Part shown: positions 26,301-38,300 of the stretch, in pieces
Position numbering within the stretch: the stretch's first letter is position 1
How the letters are laid out: each line of letters starts with the position of its first letter
NCBI GenBank assembly: GCA_963766075.1
Contig: CAVYAN010000048.1
Location: 52,266-116,265 of the forward strand
Source of the DNA: an uncultured cyanobacterium
GTDB lineage: Bacteria; Cyanobacteriota; Cyanobacteriia; Leptolyngbyales; Leptolyngbyaceae
Length of the DNA stretch: 64,000 bases
Reading direction: 5' to 3'
Program-made: the position numbers

Positions 26301-29300
26301 GAAACGCCCAATGGGCTTAAATCAACGGGTGGCAAAGGGAAGCCGGGAACCCGTCGCAAGTTCCCAGCTAAAGTACGTCAGCTCAAAGAGCGCTGGTGTA
26401 GCGCCTACGCCAAAATCGACGTAATGTCGGCAGCGATCGCGGGACAATCCCGCTTCAACCACACATGGACGCTGGTTGTCACTGGCGAGCGAGCCGAGGA
26501 AAGCCCAGGGCGGGCCAAGTATGCGGAGTTTGAGGAACACCGTTCAGACCGTCGCTCGGGCAACCTGCGCCGCCACGTTGACCACTGGCGTCCGGTTCAC
26601 AAGTGGGGTCGAAATAGGGTGTGGGAGCGCATGGCCGTTGAGGGTATCGTGGCGCATCCAGCCTATCACTTGGGGTTTGGCAGGCTGTCTTGCCAGCGGT
26701 GCATTTTTGGTTCGCCAAACCAGTGGGCCACAAATTTTCACATCTCACCCGCCGAGACGCAGCGCATGGCGAACTATGAGGATGATTTTCAGTTCACATT
26801 GGACAGAAAGTTTTCCCTGCCAGAGCTTGCCGCGAAGGGTACTGTCTATTCAGCGATCGCCCAAAACGAGGGAGCGCTTAGAGCCGCCCTGCGGAGGGAG
26901 TACGTGGATAGAATCCTCGTGTCTCCCGATGAATGGCAGATGCCTGCGGGAGCGTTCGGGGAAAACAATGGTCCAATCTAACGGAGATTCAATTCAATGA
27001 AAAGAATGTATGGGTTTGCCAACATAAGCGATGTGGTTTTTGAAAGTGGAGGCGGCTGAAATTTTATGACTTTAATCAACTATAGGTTCACTGGGGATTC
27101 AGATGATGAAGTTTGGGAAGGCAGCTTCGATTATCCAGGTGATGTATCGTCCGTTTTAAGGCCAAATAGCTTTATTGGTGGGGCTAAAACGACAAAGGCT
27201 GCGGCGCTGGAGTCCGACATATCCAAAATGGCAAGAAAGGCGCTTCGCTCAGACCACGGACCCCAAAGCTACATCAAGCAAAAACTATGGGTTGCGCAGT
27301 AACAAAGATCGACAGGAGAAAGATGATGCAAAGAGTCGAAATTTTTCAAGGACTTGGTGGAGATGCTACGCATGGTGATATTTCAGACTTCTATCCCAGG
27401 TACCTTGCAGCGCTCAAGCTAGCAATTGACACGGCAGAACCATTTGATACAGGCTGGTATGGCTGCAAAAAAGAAATCCAAACCGCCCGGATCTCCTGTT
27501 TGCAGGATCCAGAGAAAGTAGAGATCCAGGTGTCCTGCGGCATGGATAACACTAACGATTTGATCGATACTGCGATCTGGGAAGCTTTCGGCAAAAATGA
27601 CTATGCCGGATCTGGCTATGAGGCGATGCGGAAGCGCTACCCCGGCGCAACTGACGCGCAGATTGAAAGAGCGATTGAGCGAATCCAGGACAGGACGCAT
27701 GGTGACATTACCATGGGCGATGACAATTACGCGAAATCCGAAAAGGTAATAGAGATTGGCTCACCGGAAGAAGCGATGGAGGCGATCATGGCAACGCTTC
27801 AAGAGTTGGCGGCTTCCTCTACACGGGAACTGAAGCAGCGTTATCAGTCGCTTGTGAACATCATTCGTGACAGCATGGACAATCTGATGGAGGAAGCATG
27901 ACTTTAGTTTGCCACAGCCATCCCCATCCAGTTCAGATCGGTGACAGGATCGAGGATGGTTTATTGATTTGCGACGGGCACCAAGTGCTCATGAGCCCAG
28001 AGCCAGGGCTCCCAGAAGCTTCTTTCGACGTTCTCTGGGAGGACGATGAAAAAGAGTGGTATTTTCATCTTTCTTACACATCGCCAGAATGGCTGAAGGT
28101 GCCCGAGGGCGTTGCAGTTGTTCCAATCTGGAAAACTCAGAAACAGTTGGACGATGAAAGAACTGAGGCAGAAGATTGCGACTGCTACAGGGATACAAAA
28201 TCTGTTAGATGCTACTAAGGGGCACATAGGAGATTTATGATTAGCGAAGCCTTTCAATACAAAAGCCTTGGCCATGTCAAAGTGGTCGAAAATGTAAAAA
28301 ATGACCGCACGGGAAATCCGATCGTCCTAGTTTTTGTGGGACAAACAGAGGATTGTTTTTATCAGGAAGTTGTTGAGGGGGGGTGTTATCCGAGCGGGCG
28401 TAGAGGTTTACGGAACCTTTTACGCTTCCTACGAGCCGAGCGAGGGGAGGCGAAGCTGGGTTACGGAACATCGCTCCATGGACAGCGCCCTAGCCGCCCT
28501 GGAGGAAACCCTGGAGCTTATAAGGAGGCTAAAGAGCAGTAGCCCCTTTGGCCCGCCGCCTCTTCGGCCATGGCTCGCGCCTCAGTCTTTGGGAATTTAA
28601 GTTTACAAAAAGGAGGAATGATGAACTTTAGTGTTTTGTCAAGCGGTTTGGCCGCTCCCGTCAGGAAAAGTCTACCAGGAAGTCCAGAGGACGCCAAAGA
28701 ACGGCGATTGATGGCCATCCTGGCGATGCAAAAAACTGAGCGTAGGAAGCTGGGTTGTAGTTGTCCCCTTTTCCTGGCCAACGGTCGCTCCGAGAACCCC
28801 AGGATCGACATTGGCGATGATCGAGACTGCGAGTACTGCCACCCTATCAGGAGTTTCTGATGAATTTACTAACCGATCCGTGGGTTCCGGTCCTGGAGCA
28901 AAACAATCGCCCTGGCGAGGCATCCTTGCTCCGACTGCTGACCGATGGCAGCATTTTGGATATAACTGGCCAGCCGATGACCAGGCTGGCCGTCCTGCGG
29001 CTGCTCATGGCCATGAAAGCATGGCGCGATCGCGGTGGTGATGACTTCCAGGAACAATCCTTCAGCCTGAGTACGTTCTTGCAAACTGCGTTGCCCGCAG
29101 AATGCAAGGGGCTACGCCCTGAGCTGATTATCCAAATGTCCGATAAAAACGGCGTGGCATGGTCCCCGACGCCGCGCAAGCCATCACCACCGGAGATTTT
29201 CGCTCAGGCTGTCGTCACGGCGTATTTCTGCGATCGCGGCGGACTGAAGGCCCGAGTCCCCGGCTTATCCATTTCGGGCCAAACACCGTTTCATGTAGGC

Positions 29301-35300: not shown

Positions 35301-38300
35301 GAAAATTGTGCCGCTGAGTGAGCCTTGACCCCAACCCAGTCGTGACAGTTCTGGAGTTAAAGAATCCCGGCAACGGGACTGGCAAAATTCATCAAAGCCA
35401 GTAAGGAGAACAACGTGAACATCAAGTCTTGCGCGATCGCCATCAATAGCGGAGAGGACGCCCACGCATCCATTCTGGCCATGTGTCAGCAGCTAGACAT
35501 AGCCAATCTGCCTGAGCCTGAAGACAAAATGCGCCAACTGGCGTACACGGAAAGCGGACTAAGGGTCGCTTTGATGTTGAATCACCAATGGATTCAGGCT
35601 CGGGCGGAAAAACTGATTCAGCCTTGCTTCAATCGGATTGCTACTGAGGAGTTTGGCGTGGGTATGCGTCAAACTCGCGCAATGGTCGCACATGATTAAC
35701 CAGTGAACATAGGAGTTGAAAAGTGAAAATCAATCGCCCAGTTGGAGTACTACTGCCAATTCATGAAACGTATTACGGGGATATAAACCCTGGCGATCTA
35801 AACAGTTTCTTGGCTTGTGCCGGAGAAGCGTTGCGAACGTTCGGGTTCTCTCGGATCGAAACCTTAAACCCTGACACAGACCGAGAGCGGGAGCTGTGGG
35901 GCGTTGGCGAAATCTTGGTCCAGTCGGATGAGATTACGAGCTGGGATGACGGCAAAGATGTGGGGATAACGGTTGATTGGCTTGACCTAATCGACGCCGA
36001 TTCAGACGAAATATTGAAGGTTCTAGAATCCACATGGATGAAGGAACCGGCGATCGTGGCGATGAACTATCTCGAAGAAGATGGCTACAAAGACCGTGGA
36101 AACTCCGAGTTTGGAGTAGTTCGCTCCTACAGGCATCACAGTCAGGAATTTGTCCCAGGAATTCCCCTTTCTAGGTTTTTGAGCGAGGGATGGGTAAAAG
36201 AGCAGCCTAGCAGCAAGGCAAGCATCAGTGTAGCCCCTGGCGGGGGGATTCAAGTCCCGCGAGAACTTGACTTTGTTCGATGCTGGGAGCTTTTTGAACG
36301 CCAGTCGCTAGACAACCCTAGGTGTTTTGAGTATCGGCAGGTATGCCTCACTGAGGATTCTCGCTACAGAAAATGGGTAGAGCAGGGCTATCCTGCCTTT
36401 TCGGTAAACTTTTCCGACTCTCAGCGCCGTTTTGTCAACGAAGCAAAACTATCGGAAAGAGCGGCATTTGTTCACTCGATAGTAAGCCGCCCATCCGAAT
36501 TCCAAAGGCTGGTATCGGAGTTTGGGCATACCCTTGCTGTCGGCCACTCAGTCTGGATCTGCACGGATGCAGAAGGCCGCGAGGGATTTTATATGTGGCG
36601 AACCGAAGGGGGCTGGCACGGGGCTCAATTCGGAGTGCAAGAGCTGAAAAGGCTTGGAGTGAGCGATCGCTTTGAAAAGCTGAGGGAAACTTTAAGTATC
36701 GAAACGAAAGGATTTCCTGTAGCCGGAGAGGGCGTTGGCAGATACGCCGATGTGGAATTCCTCAAATCTACGGGATGGTTTGAGTAGTTGATCCTCAGCA
36801 CCCCACCTTGTGGGGGTTTGTCAAAGTTTATAAACGGGCTGCGGTATTTATTGGCGACTTAAAGCCTTTGCCCCACGCCGTGGGGGTTTATCAACGGTCT
36901 GCGGCAGCCTTGTGACGTAAAGCCTTCGCCCTACACTGTGTAGGGGTTTATCTTCGATCCAACTCTATTGGCTTAACGGCTCTCTTTGCCCCACGGTGTG
37001 GGGGTTTATCTTTGCTCCAACTCTACCAGCTTAACGGCTCTCTTTGCCCCACGGTGTGGGGGTTTATCAAACGGTTCTATAGCCAAATCAACCCTCACCC
37101 CGCTCAGTGGGGGTCTATCTTTACGGCAGCAAACCCCCACCGGGCTTACATCACCCCACACTGTGGGGGTGCGATCGCATCGCGCTTGAAATGATTTACA
37201 CCAAACATAGGAGGCTTATACCCGCCTTTCAGCATTCAAATAAATGTCCCGCCGCGATCGCCACTGGTCGCGGCTTTTTTTATGGAGAAACCCCAAAATG
37301 CAAACCAAAATCACCAAATCTAAAGCCGCCGAAATCGCCCAGAACCTGATAGAGGAAGGCGAGGAAAACACAGGAGTCTGTCTAGCCTGCGGAGAAGTCC
37401 ATGAAGGGATTGAGCCCGATGCCCGCGAGTATAAATGTGAAGCCTGCGGTCAACATAAAGTTTACGGATCAGAAGAAATTCTTCTAATGTTCGGACCTGC
37501 CAACTTCTAAAAACCACTGAATGCAGACTGCCGCGATCGCCACTGATCGCGGCTTTTTTATGGAGAAAACATGCACCCTGAATCAATCGAGATTGGAGAG
37601 GAATACAGCCCTGAAGCCTGGAGTGGTGGCGACTTCTATTACAAAATCACCCGAACCCATTATGGGTACTGGGCGATGCTGTACACCCGCCTAGCGGAGA
37701 CACGAAAAGAAAACTGGCGTTTCCGGATTATCAATCCGCAGCCCTATCAAATACTAGGGCTTTTGGCAGTACGAATTGATCGATTTGTAGCAGAAATGAG
37801 GCAAAGCAATGCTAATTGATGAGGTCTTGGACATTGAATGGTTGGACAAAGTGGGTGACCCGCTCACAGTTGCCACAACCATTTGTGGAATTGTGAACGG
37901 TTCGATTTGTGCGAAAGAAATCCTAGAAAAGTCAGAGGGTGTATTCCCAAACCCAATCGACAAGCTATCTATACCTGAACAGAAGTTGTTTGCTATCAAT
38001 GATGTCATCCAAGGTTTTGGGACGGAAGCCGCTTGGCTGGACGACAGCTCAGACTATCCCAGCGCCGAGTATATCGACGTTGGAGATCCCTATGTAGCAA
38101 CCATTCTGTATGACTACCAGACTGACACCTTTCAGGTTACCTGCTTAGCAGATTGGCTTAACCCACAGGAGAAAGCAGCATGATTAGCGTTGCCAGAGTC
38201 CGCGAGATTGAACAAGTACTAGAAGCAAAAGCGGATGAGTACAAAGGAATAAGTAGGATTACATTCCCAGAGATCTTAAAGTTTGTGCTCCTTAAAGAGG

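Follow-up and report, generated by a model that had tools for sequence, protein, structure and literature searches.

Four cas genes in the order cas8e-cas6e-cas7e-cas5e lie in the same direction at positions 28860-31993 of the window, which is the whole 64,000-nucleotide stretch of contig C48 that was analysed, and all four open reading frames (ORFs) are intact. The four-gene effector module derived from type I-E that was described in the initial annotation was recovered with PADLOC and Pfam matches for Cas8e, Cas6e, Cas7e and Cas5e, and a profile search of the assembly placed its sole Cas7e match on C48. The first gene (28860..29678, + strand) encodes a mini-Cas8e of 272 aa that corresponds to the N-terminal part of Cas8e/Cse1 only. 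Its matches (PADLOC Cas8e, 1.5e-13; Pfam CRISPR_Cse1, 1.9e-12) were both restricted to residues 1-52, and hhalign aligned residues 2-207 with residues 3-249 of a 521-aa cyanobacterial Cas8e at a probability of 98.9%. The truncation reported earlier for this protein was thereby supported, but the structural Z-scores given with it were not reproduced, our AlphaFold model being poor (pLDDT 46.7). Homologues of the mini-Cas8 in six loci were 266-290 aa long. The cas6e product (29684..30232, + strand; 182 aa) matched PADLOC Cas6/Cas6e (2.4e-21) and Pfam CRISPR_assoc (6e-19), the latter through the end of the profile, and its C-terminal glycine-rich motif lined up in an alignment with residues 125-199 of E. 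coli CasE. Cas7e (30241..31545, + strand; 434 aa; PADLOC Cas7e, 4.9e-55; Pfam Cas_CT1975, 1.8e-54) carries an extra segment at about residues 117-205 with helical and charged low-complexity sequence, which AlphaFold (pLDDT 74.3) modelled as a long helix (117-154), a low-confidence stretch (156-180) and a further helix (190-204); the best Foldseek matches of the model were Cas7e chains of I-E Cascades (E ~5e-16). In the short Cas5e (31547..31993, + strand; 148 aa; PADLOC Cas5e, 5e-30) Pfam detected no domain besides Cas_Cas5d (1e-20), and residues 3-137 aligned with residues 4-147 of the 254-aa Cas5e of T. fusca.

Downstream of the cas genes 39 hairpin units were found, on the + strand only, at 31996-37177. 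They form four intergenic clusters on that strand, with 23 units at 31996..33195 (the first three of the CTCCA/TGGAG type), 4 units at 33492..33683, 5 units at 34478..34728 (two CCCCAC and three CTCCAC) and 7 units at 36801..37177 (among which two adjacent pairs of 'spacers' are diverged duplicates). The earlier description of degenerate Cas6e-type hairpins interleaved with ORFs was borne out except for the number of clusters, which rises to five only when the three CTCCA-type units at the start of the array are counted separately. In the same reading direction as the cas genes, a unit consists of about 5 nt, a 6-bp C-rich/G-rich stem (CCCCAC/GTGGGG) and an 8-nt tail, which is the canonical I-E layout. 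Allowing at most one mismatch, the pattern CCCCA-N5-TGGGG gave 27 matches as compared to 3.1 expected, a number that was reached in none of 100 shuffles, and 22 of the 27 were located inside 32242-37168. A covariance model built from the 39 units gave 37 matches on the + strand of C48 (window 32053-37177) and only 5 elsewhere in the genome, each with E of at least 0.28. The motif is restricted to the stretch 31996-37177 and to the + strand.

The earlier claims of compensatory stem changes and of irregular unit lengths were both reproduced. Stem positions were paired in 88.9% of the cells versus 81.9% in shuffles (0/500 shuffles reached 88.9%), and the second pair is never broken, being C-G in 30 units and U-A in the other 9. 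Immediately 3' of the stem, G-T-N3-T-C is present in 35/39 units, with three of the seven handle positions varying freely; this retention fits recognition beyond that by Cas6e. Units are spaced irregularly at 38-74 nt, giving predicted guides of 11-44 nt (median 27). Four spacer pairs scored at least 11, compared with a mean of 0.23 and a maximum of 2 in 30 shuffles; several of the 'spacers' are thus diverged duplicates, which indicates that duplication accounts for at least part of the growth of the array.

The four clusters are separated by six ORFs without annotation, all on the + strand and without a family match, encoding proteins of 90 aa (33211..33483), 111 aa (33700..34035), 135 aa (34058..34465), 182 aa (34773..35321, cysteine-rich), 94 aa (35415..35699) and 354 aa (35723..36787). 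The ribosome-binding site AGGAG of the 90-aa ORF is positioned 5 nt downstream of the last repeat handle, and the 111-aa ORF has a frameshifted paralogue at 28237-28600. The unit is closed on the + strand by a hairpin resembling a strong intrinsic terminator (37251..37282), with a 10-bp stem followed by T7. A second, near-identical copy is found at 37530-37560, and a loose terminator pattern is also met by many of the hairpin units.

The search for relatives recovered 19 close Cas7 homologues, in agreement with the previous figure of about 20, followed by a gap in E from 3.6e-55 to 3e-33. In a quick tree they formed one branch, sister to canonical cyanobacterial I-E (SH-aLRT 98). The mini-Cas8 was detected by tblastn in 9 other loci, with a short Cas5 and Cas6e adjoining wherever the extent of the contig permits, and the four IMG/VR loci noted before were confirmed. 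Arrays of the relatives span from regular and apparently still growing to ragged hairpin clusters like those in the window. Two loci (L002 and L004) have regular arrays of GTCTT-CCCCAC-ATGC-GTGGGG-GTGAGTCG with a spacing of 62-64 nt, and these repeats share the layout of the window units. The regular arrays contain spacers of 33-35 nt; L002 and L004 have four spacers in common and in the same order, while the cas-proximal spacers, 3 and 9 in number, differ, the pattern that addition of new spacers at one end would give. The window-unit model detects the repeats of the relatives in matching orientation. The 39 units are best explained as the module's own CRISPR repeats. In L001 an eight-repeat array separates cas7 from cas5, and in L001 and L081-L083 there are hairpins ahead of cas6e or cas7. 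Three related IMG/VR phage genomes (G001-G003) contain 35-41 hairpins each, spread along the entire genome in 8-10 clusters over 72-77 kb; orientation within a cluster is always uniform and mostly that of a neighbouring ORF, with one cluster in each genome oriented against the adjacent ORFs.

This arrangement could also reflect RNA punctuation or regulation, in which the hairpins are mainly cutting sites for Cas6e and a guide function is secondary or absent. Expression of the interleaved ORFs would then be set by the hairpins, either because long phage transcripts are chopped into separate messages, because messages are given protected 3' hairpins, or because Cas5/Cas7 are loaded onto 5' handles beside ribosome-binding sites. 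We consider this possible, although unlikely. All 39 units are co-oriented with the flanking ORFs within one terminator-bounded unit, ORFs have AGGAG-type sites and begin 16-90 nt past the final handle of a cluster, and the hairpin positions in L001, in L081-L083 and along the ORFs of the three phage genomes also speak for it; irregular spacing and freely drifting 'spacers' would likewise pose less of a problem were the guide sequence irrelevant. However, a single site per junction would be sufficient, whereas the clusters contain 4-23 units, and the retained tail together with the Cas5, Cas7 and Cas8 genes points to assembly of a full RNA-protein complex. The relatives with regular arrays, 33-35-nt spacers and spacer turnover, as well as the opposing clusters in G001-G003, also argue against punctuation.

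The module is carried by a phage or phage-plasmid, as previously proposed for C48, which is probably temperate; the genome it comes from is probably cyanobacterial. PHROGs searches of 103 ORFs on the contig gave a major head protein, head protease, portal and large terminase, as well as tail fibre, ParA, ParB, integrase and DarB-like antirestriction proteins, the last at window positions 38180-51305. Csx3 was located on the same contig, as had been stated, at 18085-18237 within the stretch 17941-18243. Positions 1-510 of C48 are repeated at 115752-116260 with 99.8% identity. The reported end overlap is thus correct, and the circular form deduced from these 510 bp and a direct terminal repeat of a terminally redundant linear phage genome would fit it equally well.

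Six-frame HMM searches of the whole assembly (5.05 Mb, 84.9% complete) detected no Cse2/Cas11 (PF09485 and the cyanobacterial Cse2 profile A5) and no I-E Cas2 (PF09707); the best Cas1 score (PF01867, E 0.39) was under the cut-off and the best Cas3-core score was 38.9 bits against a cut-off of 102, which agrees with the earlier statement that cas3, cas11, cas1 and cas2 are absent. Cas1 and the Cas3 core were likewise found in 0/3 related IMG/VR records, all whole and one with direct terminal repeats, and Pfam detected no additional Cas families within ±10 kb in three related loci (ORFs scanned: L001 33/35, L082 33/35, L081 9/20). The acquisition of new spacers by this element may have ceased, as the assembly yielded no adaptation genes. 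Protospacers were equally lacking, as before, in repeated searches: the best match in the own genome was 17 nt with a mismatched seed (34 bits versus 28-32 in five shuffled sets), and none was found in PLSDB plasmids, GenBank phages, the 154 collected loci, four related phage genomes or four exact-pattern scans of IMG/VR.

Several of these observations are those expected of a decaying relic, that is, a once-regular array fed by host adaptation genes and now eroding by point changes, deletions and duplications in a host without such genes, with little or no present function. The degenerate repeats, 38-74 nt spacing, 11-44 nt and partly duplicated spacers, missing adaptation genes and protospacers, and the frameshifted paralogue that adjoins cas8 are compatible with it. 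Decay is nevertheless distinctly unlikely. Against it stand four intact cas ORFs, stems kept paired by compensatory changes with pair 2 broken in no unit, and a handle motif retained in 35/39 units. The same ragged clusters also recur in three other phage genomes, which argues for maintenance and not for one-off decay.

The reading that we prefer, with a probability of roughly one half, is an I-E derivative, free of nuclease and adaptation genes, that matures its own crRNAs and binds DNA but does not cut it; the module looks like a compact RNA-guided DNA-binding kit. The cas genes, hairpins and small ORFs are probably transcribed as one + strand unit ending at the terminator at 37251-37282. 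Cas6e would cleave at the 3' base of every stem, giving RNAs in which a guide of 11-44 nt is flanked by an 8-nt 5' handle (G-U-N3-U-C-N) and a 3' hairpin, and Cas5, a Cas7 filament and mini-Cas8 could assemble on these RNAs. Binding of this complex to matching DNA may silence or obstruct a competing mobile element or a locus in the host, by analogy with type IV-A and Cas3-free Cascade, and the array has grown at least in part by unit duplication and divergence. We count the I-E gene matches, missing Cas families, repeat anatomy, covariation, relatives, duplicated spacers and terminator in favour of this reading. In E. coli Cascade, Cas11 is reported in PMC12235044 as not required for the silencing of genes or for interference with plasmids, and plasmid type IV-A systems are described in PMC11656645 as silencing without a nuclease and borrowing I-E adaptation in trans. 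On the other side stand guides of 11-44 nt in place of the fixed 32-33 nt of I-E Cascade, three freely varying handle positions, the empty protospacer searches, a host bin (84.9% complete) without I-E adaptation genes and the many units that fit a loose terminator pattern. The R-loop is held by the Cas8e C-terminal bundle and Cas11; both are missing, so stable binding to double-stranded DNA is not assured.

If the bound target were cut after all, the DNA marked by the mini-Cascade would have to be cleaved by a borrowed Cas3 of the host or by a phage protein that lacks annotation. The six interleaved ORFs and many others on the element have no family match and might include such an unrecognised nuclease, but the interleaved ORFs had no relatives near the module in other loci (tblastn, 1e-4), none of the four Cas proteins has an HNH or another nuclease domain in Pfam, and the assembly lacks Cas3. 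The Cas8e region absent from the mini-Cas8 is presumably the part that helps to dock Cas3. Although Cas3-less I-E and I-F variants with an acquired HNH nuclease are reported in PMC10910872, this is the least likely of the explanations. Hardly more probable is a decoy against a host type I-E system, a large-scale RNA anti-CRISPR in which the repeats, perhaps with partial Cascade subunits, soak up or poison host Cas6e and Cascade. Single phage repeat units are described as RNA anti-CRISPRs in PMC11656645, the DarB-like proteins and Csx3 are further counter-defence candidates nearby, and the hairpin type is that of canonical cyanobacterial I-E (e.g. GTTGT-CCCCAT-ACAC-ATGGGG-GTGTTCCG in L027). Yet the window handle differs from the canonical GTGTTCCG, and the window model found 0 of the L027 repeats at E ≤ 0.1, and in L088 it found no more than three (E ~0.09); moreover, the assembly (84.9% complete) has no I-E genes outside C48, and a decoy would not require its own Cas5, Cas7 and Cas8.

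Compared to canonical type I-E (E. coli, T. fusca and cyanobacterial loci such as L029, L032 and L088), Cas6e, Cas7e, Cas5e and the N-terminal part of Cas8e are homologous and the 6-bp C/G repeat stem with an 8-nt tail is common to both, whereas the module lacks Cas3, Cse2/Cas11, Cas1 and Cas2. Cas8 is 272 aa here versus 513-530 aa, Cas5 148 aa versus about 213 aa and Cas7 434 aa versus about 380 aa (the last two in cyanobacterial systems); cas6e lies upstream of cas7 and not last, and the array is irregular and ORF-interleaved. Type IV-A plasmid systems are likewise found on mobile elements without nuclease or adaptation genes, and are thought to silence rivals by binding and known to borrow I-E adaptation in trans, according to PMC11656645 and bioRxiv 10.1101/2023.06.23.546257. 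They consist of Csf1-3 and 5 with DinG, whereas the best matches here were I-E families, the only type IV match in PADLOC being a weak one for Cas6 (5.6e-9 versus 2.4e-21 for Cas6e), and no DinG adjoins the module. The I-F2 (I-Fv) minimal Cascade is also described, in excerpts of PMC12956352 and PMC4937334, as lacking the small subunit and having backbone subunits with extra parts, but it has no Cas8 at all and keeps Cas2-3 and adaptation, unlike the module, which retains a mini-Cas8 and has no Cas3. The I-E2 Cas5-HNH Cascade (Altae-Tran et al. 2023; excerpt of PMC10910872) is an I-E derivative mostly without cas3, like the module, and its Cas11 is reported as dispensable for editing activity; it combines a full Cas8 and a Cas11 with an HNH nuclease on Cas5, in contrast to the 148-aa Cas5 without HNH found here, which matched the Cas5-HNH chain 8yb6_A weakly (E 0.0028).

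Type I CRISPR-associated transposons, I-E variants included, use a binding-only Cas3-less Cascade according to excerpts of PMC11656645 and PMC12669027. In contrast, there was no TniQ in the assembly, Pfam and PHROGs detected no transposase families near the cas module, and the module is borne by a phage that encodes ParAB and an integrase. That phages can carry CRISPR parts but no adaptation or nuclease genes is generally known (PMC11656645 and PMC4916379), among them incomplete systems, mini-arrays and single repeat units in huge phages and the array of cyanophage N-1. These comprise complete systems that belong to other subtypes, or else arrays relying on host Cas proteins; the phage described here differs in having its own cut-down I-E effector together with dozens of degenerate repeats.

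Four tightly packed open reading frames (ORFs) on the plus strand at 28860-31993 matched type I-E families in PADLOC and Pfam searches: a 272-aa Cas8e whose HMM matches were limited to residues 1-52, a 182-aa Cas6e (PADLOC, E = 2.4e-21), a 434-aa Cas7e (Cse4/CasC; PADLOC E = 4.9e-55, Pfam 1.8e-54) and a 148-aa Cas5e (PADLOC, E = 5e-30) with Cas_Cas5d as its sole domain. The AlphaFold model of Cas7 (pLDDT 74.3) matched the Cas7e chains of solved I-E Cascades with E values of about 5e-16 and contained as extra elements a long helix at residues 117-154, a low-confidence acidic/basic stretch at 156-180 and a helix at 190-204. 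Given that all four ORFs match I-E families and that the Cas7 model matches Cas7e chains, the proposal of the initial annotation that these genes form a four-gene effector module derived from type I-E was borne out. The only Cas7e match of the assembly was that on C48, the 116-kb contig carrying the module, of which the window covers positions 52266-116265.

In a profile comparison, residues 2-207 of the mini-Cas8 aligned with residues 3-249 of a 521-aa canonical cyanobacterial Cas8e (probability 98.9%), leaving the remaining 65 residues without alignment and about 270 canonical residues without counterpart. The absence of a full-length Cas8e with C-terminal helical bundle was judged from sequence and profile comparison, the AlphaFold model of the mini-Cas8 built from a 7-sequence alignment (pLDDT 46.7) being too poor for a fold search. 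The Cas5e covered approximately the first 147 of the 254 residues of T. fusca Cas5e. In canonical cyanobacterial neighbours the gene order is cas8e-cse2-cas7e-cas5e-cas6e, with lengths of about 513-530, 180-206, 380, 213 and 185 aa, respectively. Comparison of length and order thus indicated that Cse2 was lost in the mini form, with Cas8 shortened by half and Cas5 by a third, whereas Cas7 gained about 55 residues and cas6e was moved to the front.

The absence of cas3, cas11, cas1 and cas2 that had been claimed for the element was upheld when all six frames of the entire assembly (5.05 Mb in 126 contigs, 84.9% complete) were searched with HMMs. For Cse2/Cas11, neither PF09485 nor a cyanobacterial Cse2 profile had a match, and PF09707 had none for I-E Cas2; the best match to PF01867 (Cas1) had an E value of only 0.39, and the best match to the Cas3 core (TIGR01587) reached 38.9 bits, the cut-off being 102, and was located on a contig other than C48. 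Comparison of Cse2 profiles with the Cas7 and mini-Cas8 alignments gave a match probability of 0.1%, and a Cas11 hidden in the Cas7 insertion or the mini-Cas8 C-terminus was rejected. Similarly, Cas1 and the Cas3 core were found in none of three whole related phage records from IMG/VR.

Downstream of the cas genes, 39 hairpin units were aligned at 31996-37177, all on the plus strand. They form four clusters between genes (23, 4, 5 and 7 units), and the repeat stretch is closed by a strong terminator (37251-37282). The six interleaved ORFs had no match in Pfam, PADLOC or PHROGs (Pfam and PADLOC only for the 94-aa ORF). The consensus unit consists of about 5 variable bases and CCCCAC-N3-GTGGGG followed by GTTTATC, and read in the direction of the cas genes this is the canonical I-E layout; the E. 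coli repeat is built of 5 nt, a stem-loop and an 8-nt handle. Directly 3' of the stem, G-T-N3-T-C was present in 35/39 units with the three middle bases variable. A simple hairpin pattern was found 27 times versus 3.1 expected, with 22 of the 27 in the repeat stretch, and a strict pattern occurred 21 times on C48, always in the same stretch and on the plus strand, with two further occurrences in the remainder of the 5-Mb assembly. A covariance model detected 37 units in the repeat stretch and elsewhere five matches at chance level, all with E values of at least 0.28. At the second pair of the stem 30 units had C-G and 9 had U-A, with none unpaired, and stem pairing was 88.9% of cells compared to 81.9% in shuffles, a level reached by 0/500 shuffles. 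The stems are kept through compensatory change, the number of independent compensatory events being less than nine since units related by duplication share stem changes. The earlier description of degenerate Cas6e-type hairpins interleaved with ORFs agrees with these results, and the feature is real.

The spacing of the units was 38-74 nt. When 8 nt are counted as handle and 5 nt as 5' flank, the length of the 35 internal "spacers" was 11-44 nt with a median of 27. A regular array of approximately 29-nt repeats with 32-33-nt spacers, as expected for type I-E, was absent from the window and present in three related loci (L002, L004 and L085). Four spacer pairs were clearly related with a score of at least 11, whereas 30 shuffles gave on average 0.23 and at most 2 such pairs, and three of the four involved adjacent units. 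This indicated that part of the array arose by duplication and divergence and not by acquisition. A 6-nt lattice in the spacer lengths was also considered and dropped, as a hand tally showed no clear periodicity.

No protospacer was detected, as had been reported before. The best match of the 35 window spacers to their own genome, with the array masked, was 17 nt (22/31 bases matching, with a mismatched seed), and nothing above chance was obtained against 154 fetched loci or four related phage genomes. The 5.3-kb array region gave no match in PLSDB plasmids and only two matches in GenBank phages, both with E values of 0.5 and both inside the 354-aa ORF. Exact IMG/VR scans with four spacers (two from the window and one each from the related loci L004 and L001) returned 0 matches, and the array of L004 had only repeat-like or chance-level matches in 401 genomes of the cyanobacterial phylum.

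From the gene set, the repeat anatomy, the covariation and the relatives we infer that the cas genes, repeats and interleaved ORFs would be transcribed as a single unit, that Cas6e would cut after each stem, that Cas5, Cas7 and mini-Cas8 would assemble on the released RNAs and that the complex would bind, and might thereby silence, matching DNA without cutting it. This is the best-supported reading, to which we assign a probability of about 0.5. Weighing against DNA binding are the irregular guide lengths, the failure to find targets and the loss of the Cascade parts that stabilise the R-loop. In E. coli, Cas11 was dispensable for silencing by Cascade and for plasmid interference (PMC12235044), and PMC11656645 describes the plasmid-borne type IV-A systems as nuclease-free, silencing rivals and borrowing I-E adaptation. 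That the module instead performs interference with a borrowed nuclease appears most improbable, and no Cas3 was found in the assembly.

Among 5.8 billion proteins, Cas7 had 19 close relatives (E <= 3.6e-55, 388-437 aa), after which the next matches, those of canonical Cas7e, came only at E = 3e-33; locus searches with the single Cas7 protein returned no loci and an alignment was needed as query. In a maximum-likelihood tree obtained by a quick search, 22 mini-type rows formed one branch (SH-aLRT 100) with a long stem, sister to canonical cyanobacterial and Sericytochromatia Cas7e (SH-aLRT 98). The mini-Cas8 was found by tblastn in nine other loci (L001, L002, L004, L006, L039, L081, L082, L083 and L085), with a length of 266-290 aa in the six loci examined, and was accompanied by Cas7e in 9/9, by a short Cas5e in 8/9 (L039 ends inside cas7) and by Cas6e in 8/9, none being found in L085. 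In most of the nine loci cas8 was divergent from cas6e-cas7e-cas5e. The flanks of the relatives encoded ParA/ParB, an integrase, a sigma factor, SSB, DnaN and methyltransferases and, by Pfam, no further Cas family. The three whole IMG/VR records were 72-77 kb long, one of them with direct terminal repeats. A conserved partner gene was sought and rejected, given that the ORFs in the cas8-cas6e gap of L001 and L082 were unrelated to each other and none of the interleaved ORFs of the window recurred near the module in other loci.

The regular arrays of L002, L004 and L085 had near-identical repeats at 62-64-nt spacing and were located on both sides of the module. The four spacers common to L002 and L004 were in the same order and the cas-proximal ones (3 and 9, respectively) differed; similarly, L082, L083 and a further related locus, L005, had some spacers in common and others not. 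This is the pattern of arrays that are still gaining spacers at one end, for which Cas1-Cas2 would have to come from another source. In the IMG/VR phages, the cas genes were directly followed by hairpins in tight runs with distances of about 38-40 nt, and additional regular arrays of longer repeats had a spacing of about 70 nt. In L083, from a complete phage genome with terminal repeats, hairpins were about 37-40 nt apart at 4620-4860 (after cas5e) and at 212-623 (after the divergent mini-cas8), leaving "spacers" of about 10-15 nt, less than a normal Cascade guide requires. In L001, a 109-kb metagenome contig, an eight-repeat array with 62-64-nt spacing was located at 11234-11692, between cas7e and cas5e and thus inside the operon, and two more repeats were found just upstream of cas6e (9328 and 9386). 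Decay of the module into a relic is distinctly unlikely, given that stems and handle are maintained and that the hairpin clusters recur in other phages.

Each of the three whole IMG/VR genomes (G001-G003) contained 35-41 hairpin sites in 8-10 clusters over the whole genome, the orientation being uniform within each cluster and mostly the same as that of a neighbouring ORF, and the covariance model from the window units detected these sites in the same orientation. Both these genome-wide clusters and the interleaving of hairpins with ORFs in the window are what would be expected if the hairpins act mainly as RNA punctuation or in regulation, which we nevertheless consider unlikely as their main role. 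Repeat clusters among genes here and scattered over the genome in relatives raise a less explored possibility, namely that Cas6 sites may double as signals for the handling of the phage's own transcripts. DNA binding and punctuation could also be joined, and we propose tentatively, as a possibility well short of even odds, that the module is a distinct type I-E offshoot borne by phages and phage-plasmids with a working Cascade devoid of small subunit and Cas8 bundle, in which the long helix of Cas7 may replace Cas11; the hairpins would have spread through phage genomes as dual-use elements (punctuation and regulation of long transcripts, and guides of variable length for silencing without cutting), and arrays could grow by duplication where host adaptation is lacking. 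In the same three genomes, a conserved 227-aa ORF without Pfam match was located between two hairpin arrays facing each other like inverted ends (G001 22430-24149, G002 6601-7648 and G003 13757-15018).

By descent the module is type I-E: Cas7e, a short Cas5e and Cas6e were present, and the best PADLOC families were those of I-E, with a weak type IV match for Cas6 alone. Five defining I-E features (full Cas8e, Cas11, Cas3, Cas1-Cas2 and a regular array) were lacking, so that the module should not be classed with the standard members of the subtype. In likely function it is similar to type IV-A and the Cas3-less transposon Cascades but has none of their signature genes. The type IV features Csf1/Csf2/Csf3, with DinG in IV-A, were not seen in the module. 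A cysH-like gene is a hallmark neighbour of type IV-B effector loci, which have no array, whereas arrays and Cas6 are present here; a PAPS-reductase-like ORF (PHROG 424, 1.3e-28) was located at 26004-26981 on the plus strand, 1.9 kb upstream of the cas genes. Type I CRISPR-associated transposons carry Tn7-like genes (TniQ/TnsD, TnsB, TnsC) beside a Cas3-less Cascade; TniQ (PF06527) had no match in the assembly and, although no search with models of TnsB or TnsC was made, PHROGs gave no transposase family among the 103 C48 ORFs. In I-E2 (Cas5-HNH) an HNH domain is fused to Cas5, unlike the 148-aa protein found here. A special link to this variant was considered, given that 8yb6 was the top PDB match for three subunits, and was rejected because the Cas7 profile matched T. 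fusca better (1e-58 versus 3e-39) and Cas5 had no HNH.

Phage RNA anti-CRISPRs and single repeat units mimic host repeats without cognate cas genes, whereas this phage has its own cas6e, cas7e, cas5e and cas8e. Outside C48 the assembly contained neither I-E genes nor matching repeats, and a role of the hairpins as decoy against host I-E systems seems very unlikely. The 2025 classification names I-E2, I-E3 and I-E5 in the passages considered (PMC12669027), and no description of the module architecture was found in the literature searched, including text passages, figures and supplements aside, of PMC10910872, PMC11656645 and PMC12669027. The module is a variant of type I-E with an architecture that is new relative to this literature.

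If the module works as a binder, its four genes, which total about 1,040 codons and include only half of Cas8 and no Cas11, would rank with the smallest type I effector sets observed. They would show which Cascade parts serve to locate DNA and which are required for its destruction alone, and would be of practical interest for compact programmable repression. Cyanobacterial phages and phage-plasmids would then join the mobile elements with nuclease-free CRISPR effectors, such as the type IV systems of plasmids and the transposons guided by CRISPR.

The end of C48 repeats the first 510 bases of the contig with 99.8% identity. The overlap behind the earlier claim of circularity was thereby confirmed, and it allows a closed circle and a terminally redundant phage genome equally. 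The G+C contents of C48 (53.3%) and of the remainder of the bin (53.6%) are equal. Among the 103 ORFs of C48, PHROGs identified genes for the virion (major head protein, head protease, portal, large terminase and tail fibre), for maintenance (ParA, ParB, an integrase and an HTH regulator) and, as candidates for counter-defence, several methyltransferases and DarB-like antirestriction proteins, and "phage or phage-plasmid", as the contig had been called, is a fair label. The sole Csx3 of the assembly is a 100-aa ORF at 17941-18243 on the plus strand (PF09620, E = 4e-14, above the cut-off). Csx3 proteins degrade cyclic oligoadenylate signals, and a phage-borne copy could blunt type III CRISPR signalling.

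Directly upstream of the mini-cas8, at 28237-28600 on the plus strand, a paralogue of the 111-aa ORF at 33700-34035 was split over two frames, its N-terminal half being 39% identical (E = 3e-14) and its C-terminal half, in the other frame, also 39% (E = 6e-15); a frameshifted pseudogene, programmed frameshifting or an error of sequencing may account for the split. The terminator that closes the repeat stretch has a near-identical counterpart on the same plus strand at 37530-37560, 279 bp away, both reading GCCGCGATCGCCACTG[G/A]TCGCGGC followed by a T run and both containing the palindrome GCGATCGC. Between the two is a small ORF whose zinc-ribbon match to the TNB domain of Cas12f/TnpB was weak (E = 0.002-0.004, below the cut-off). 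Just downstream of the CRISPR unit, three plus-strand ORFs matched successive parts of a DarB-like antirestriction PHROG, namely the methyltransferase part (38180-41254, 2e-47), the middle part (41446-42078, 3e-7) and the helicase part (48111-51305, 1.2e-172), which suggests a giant DarB-like protein whose coding sequence is divided among the three ORFs.
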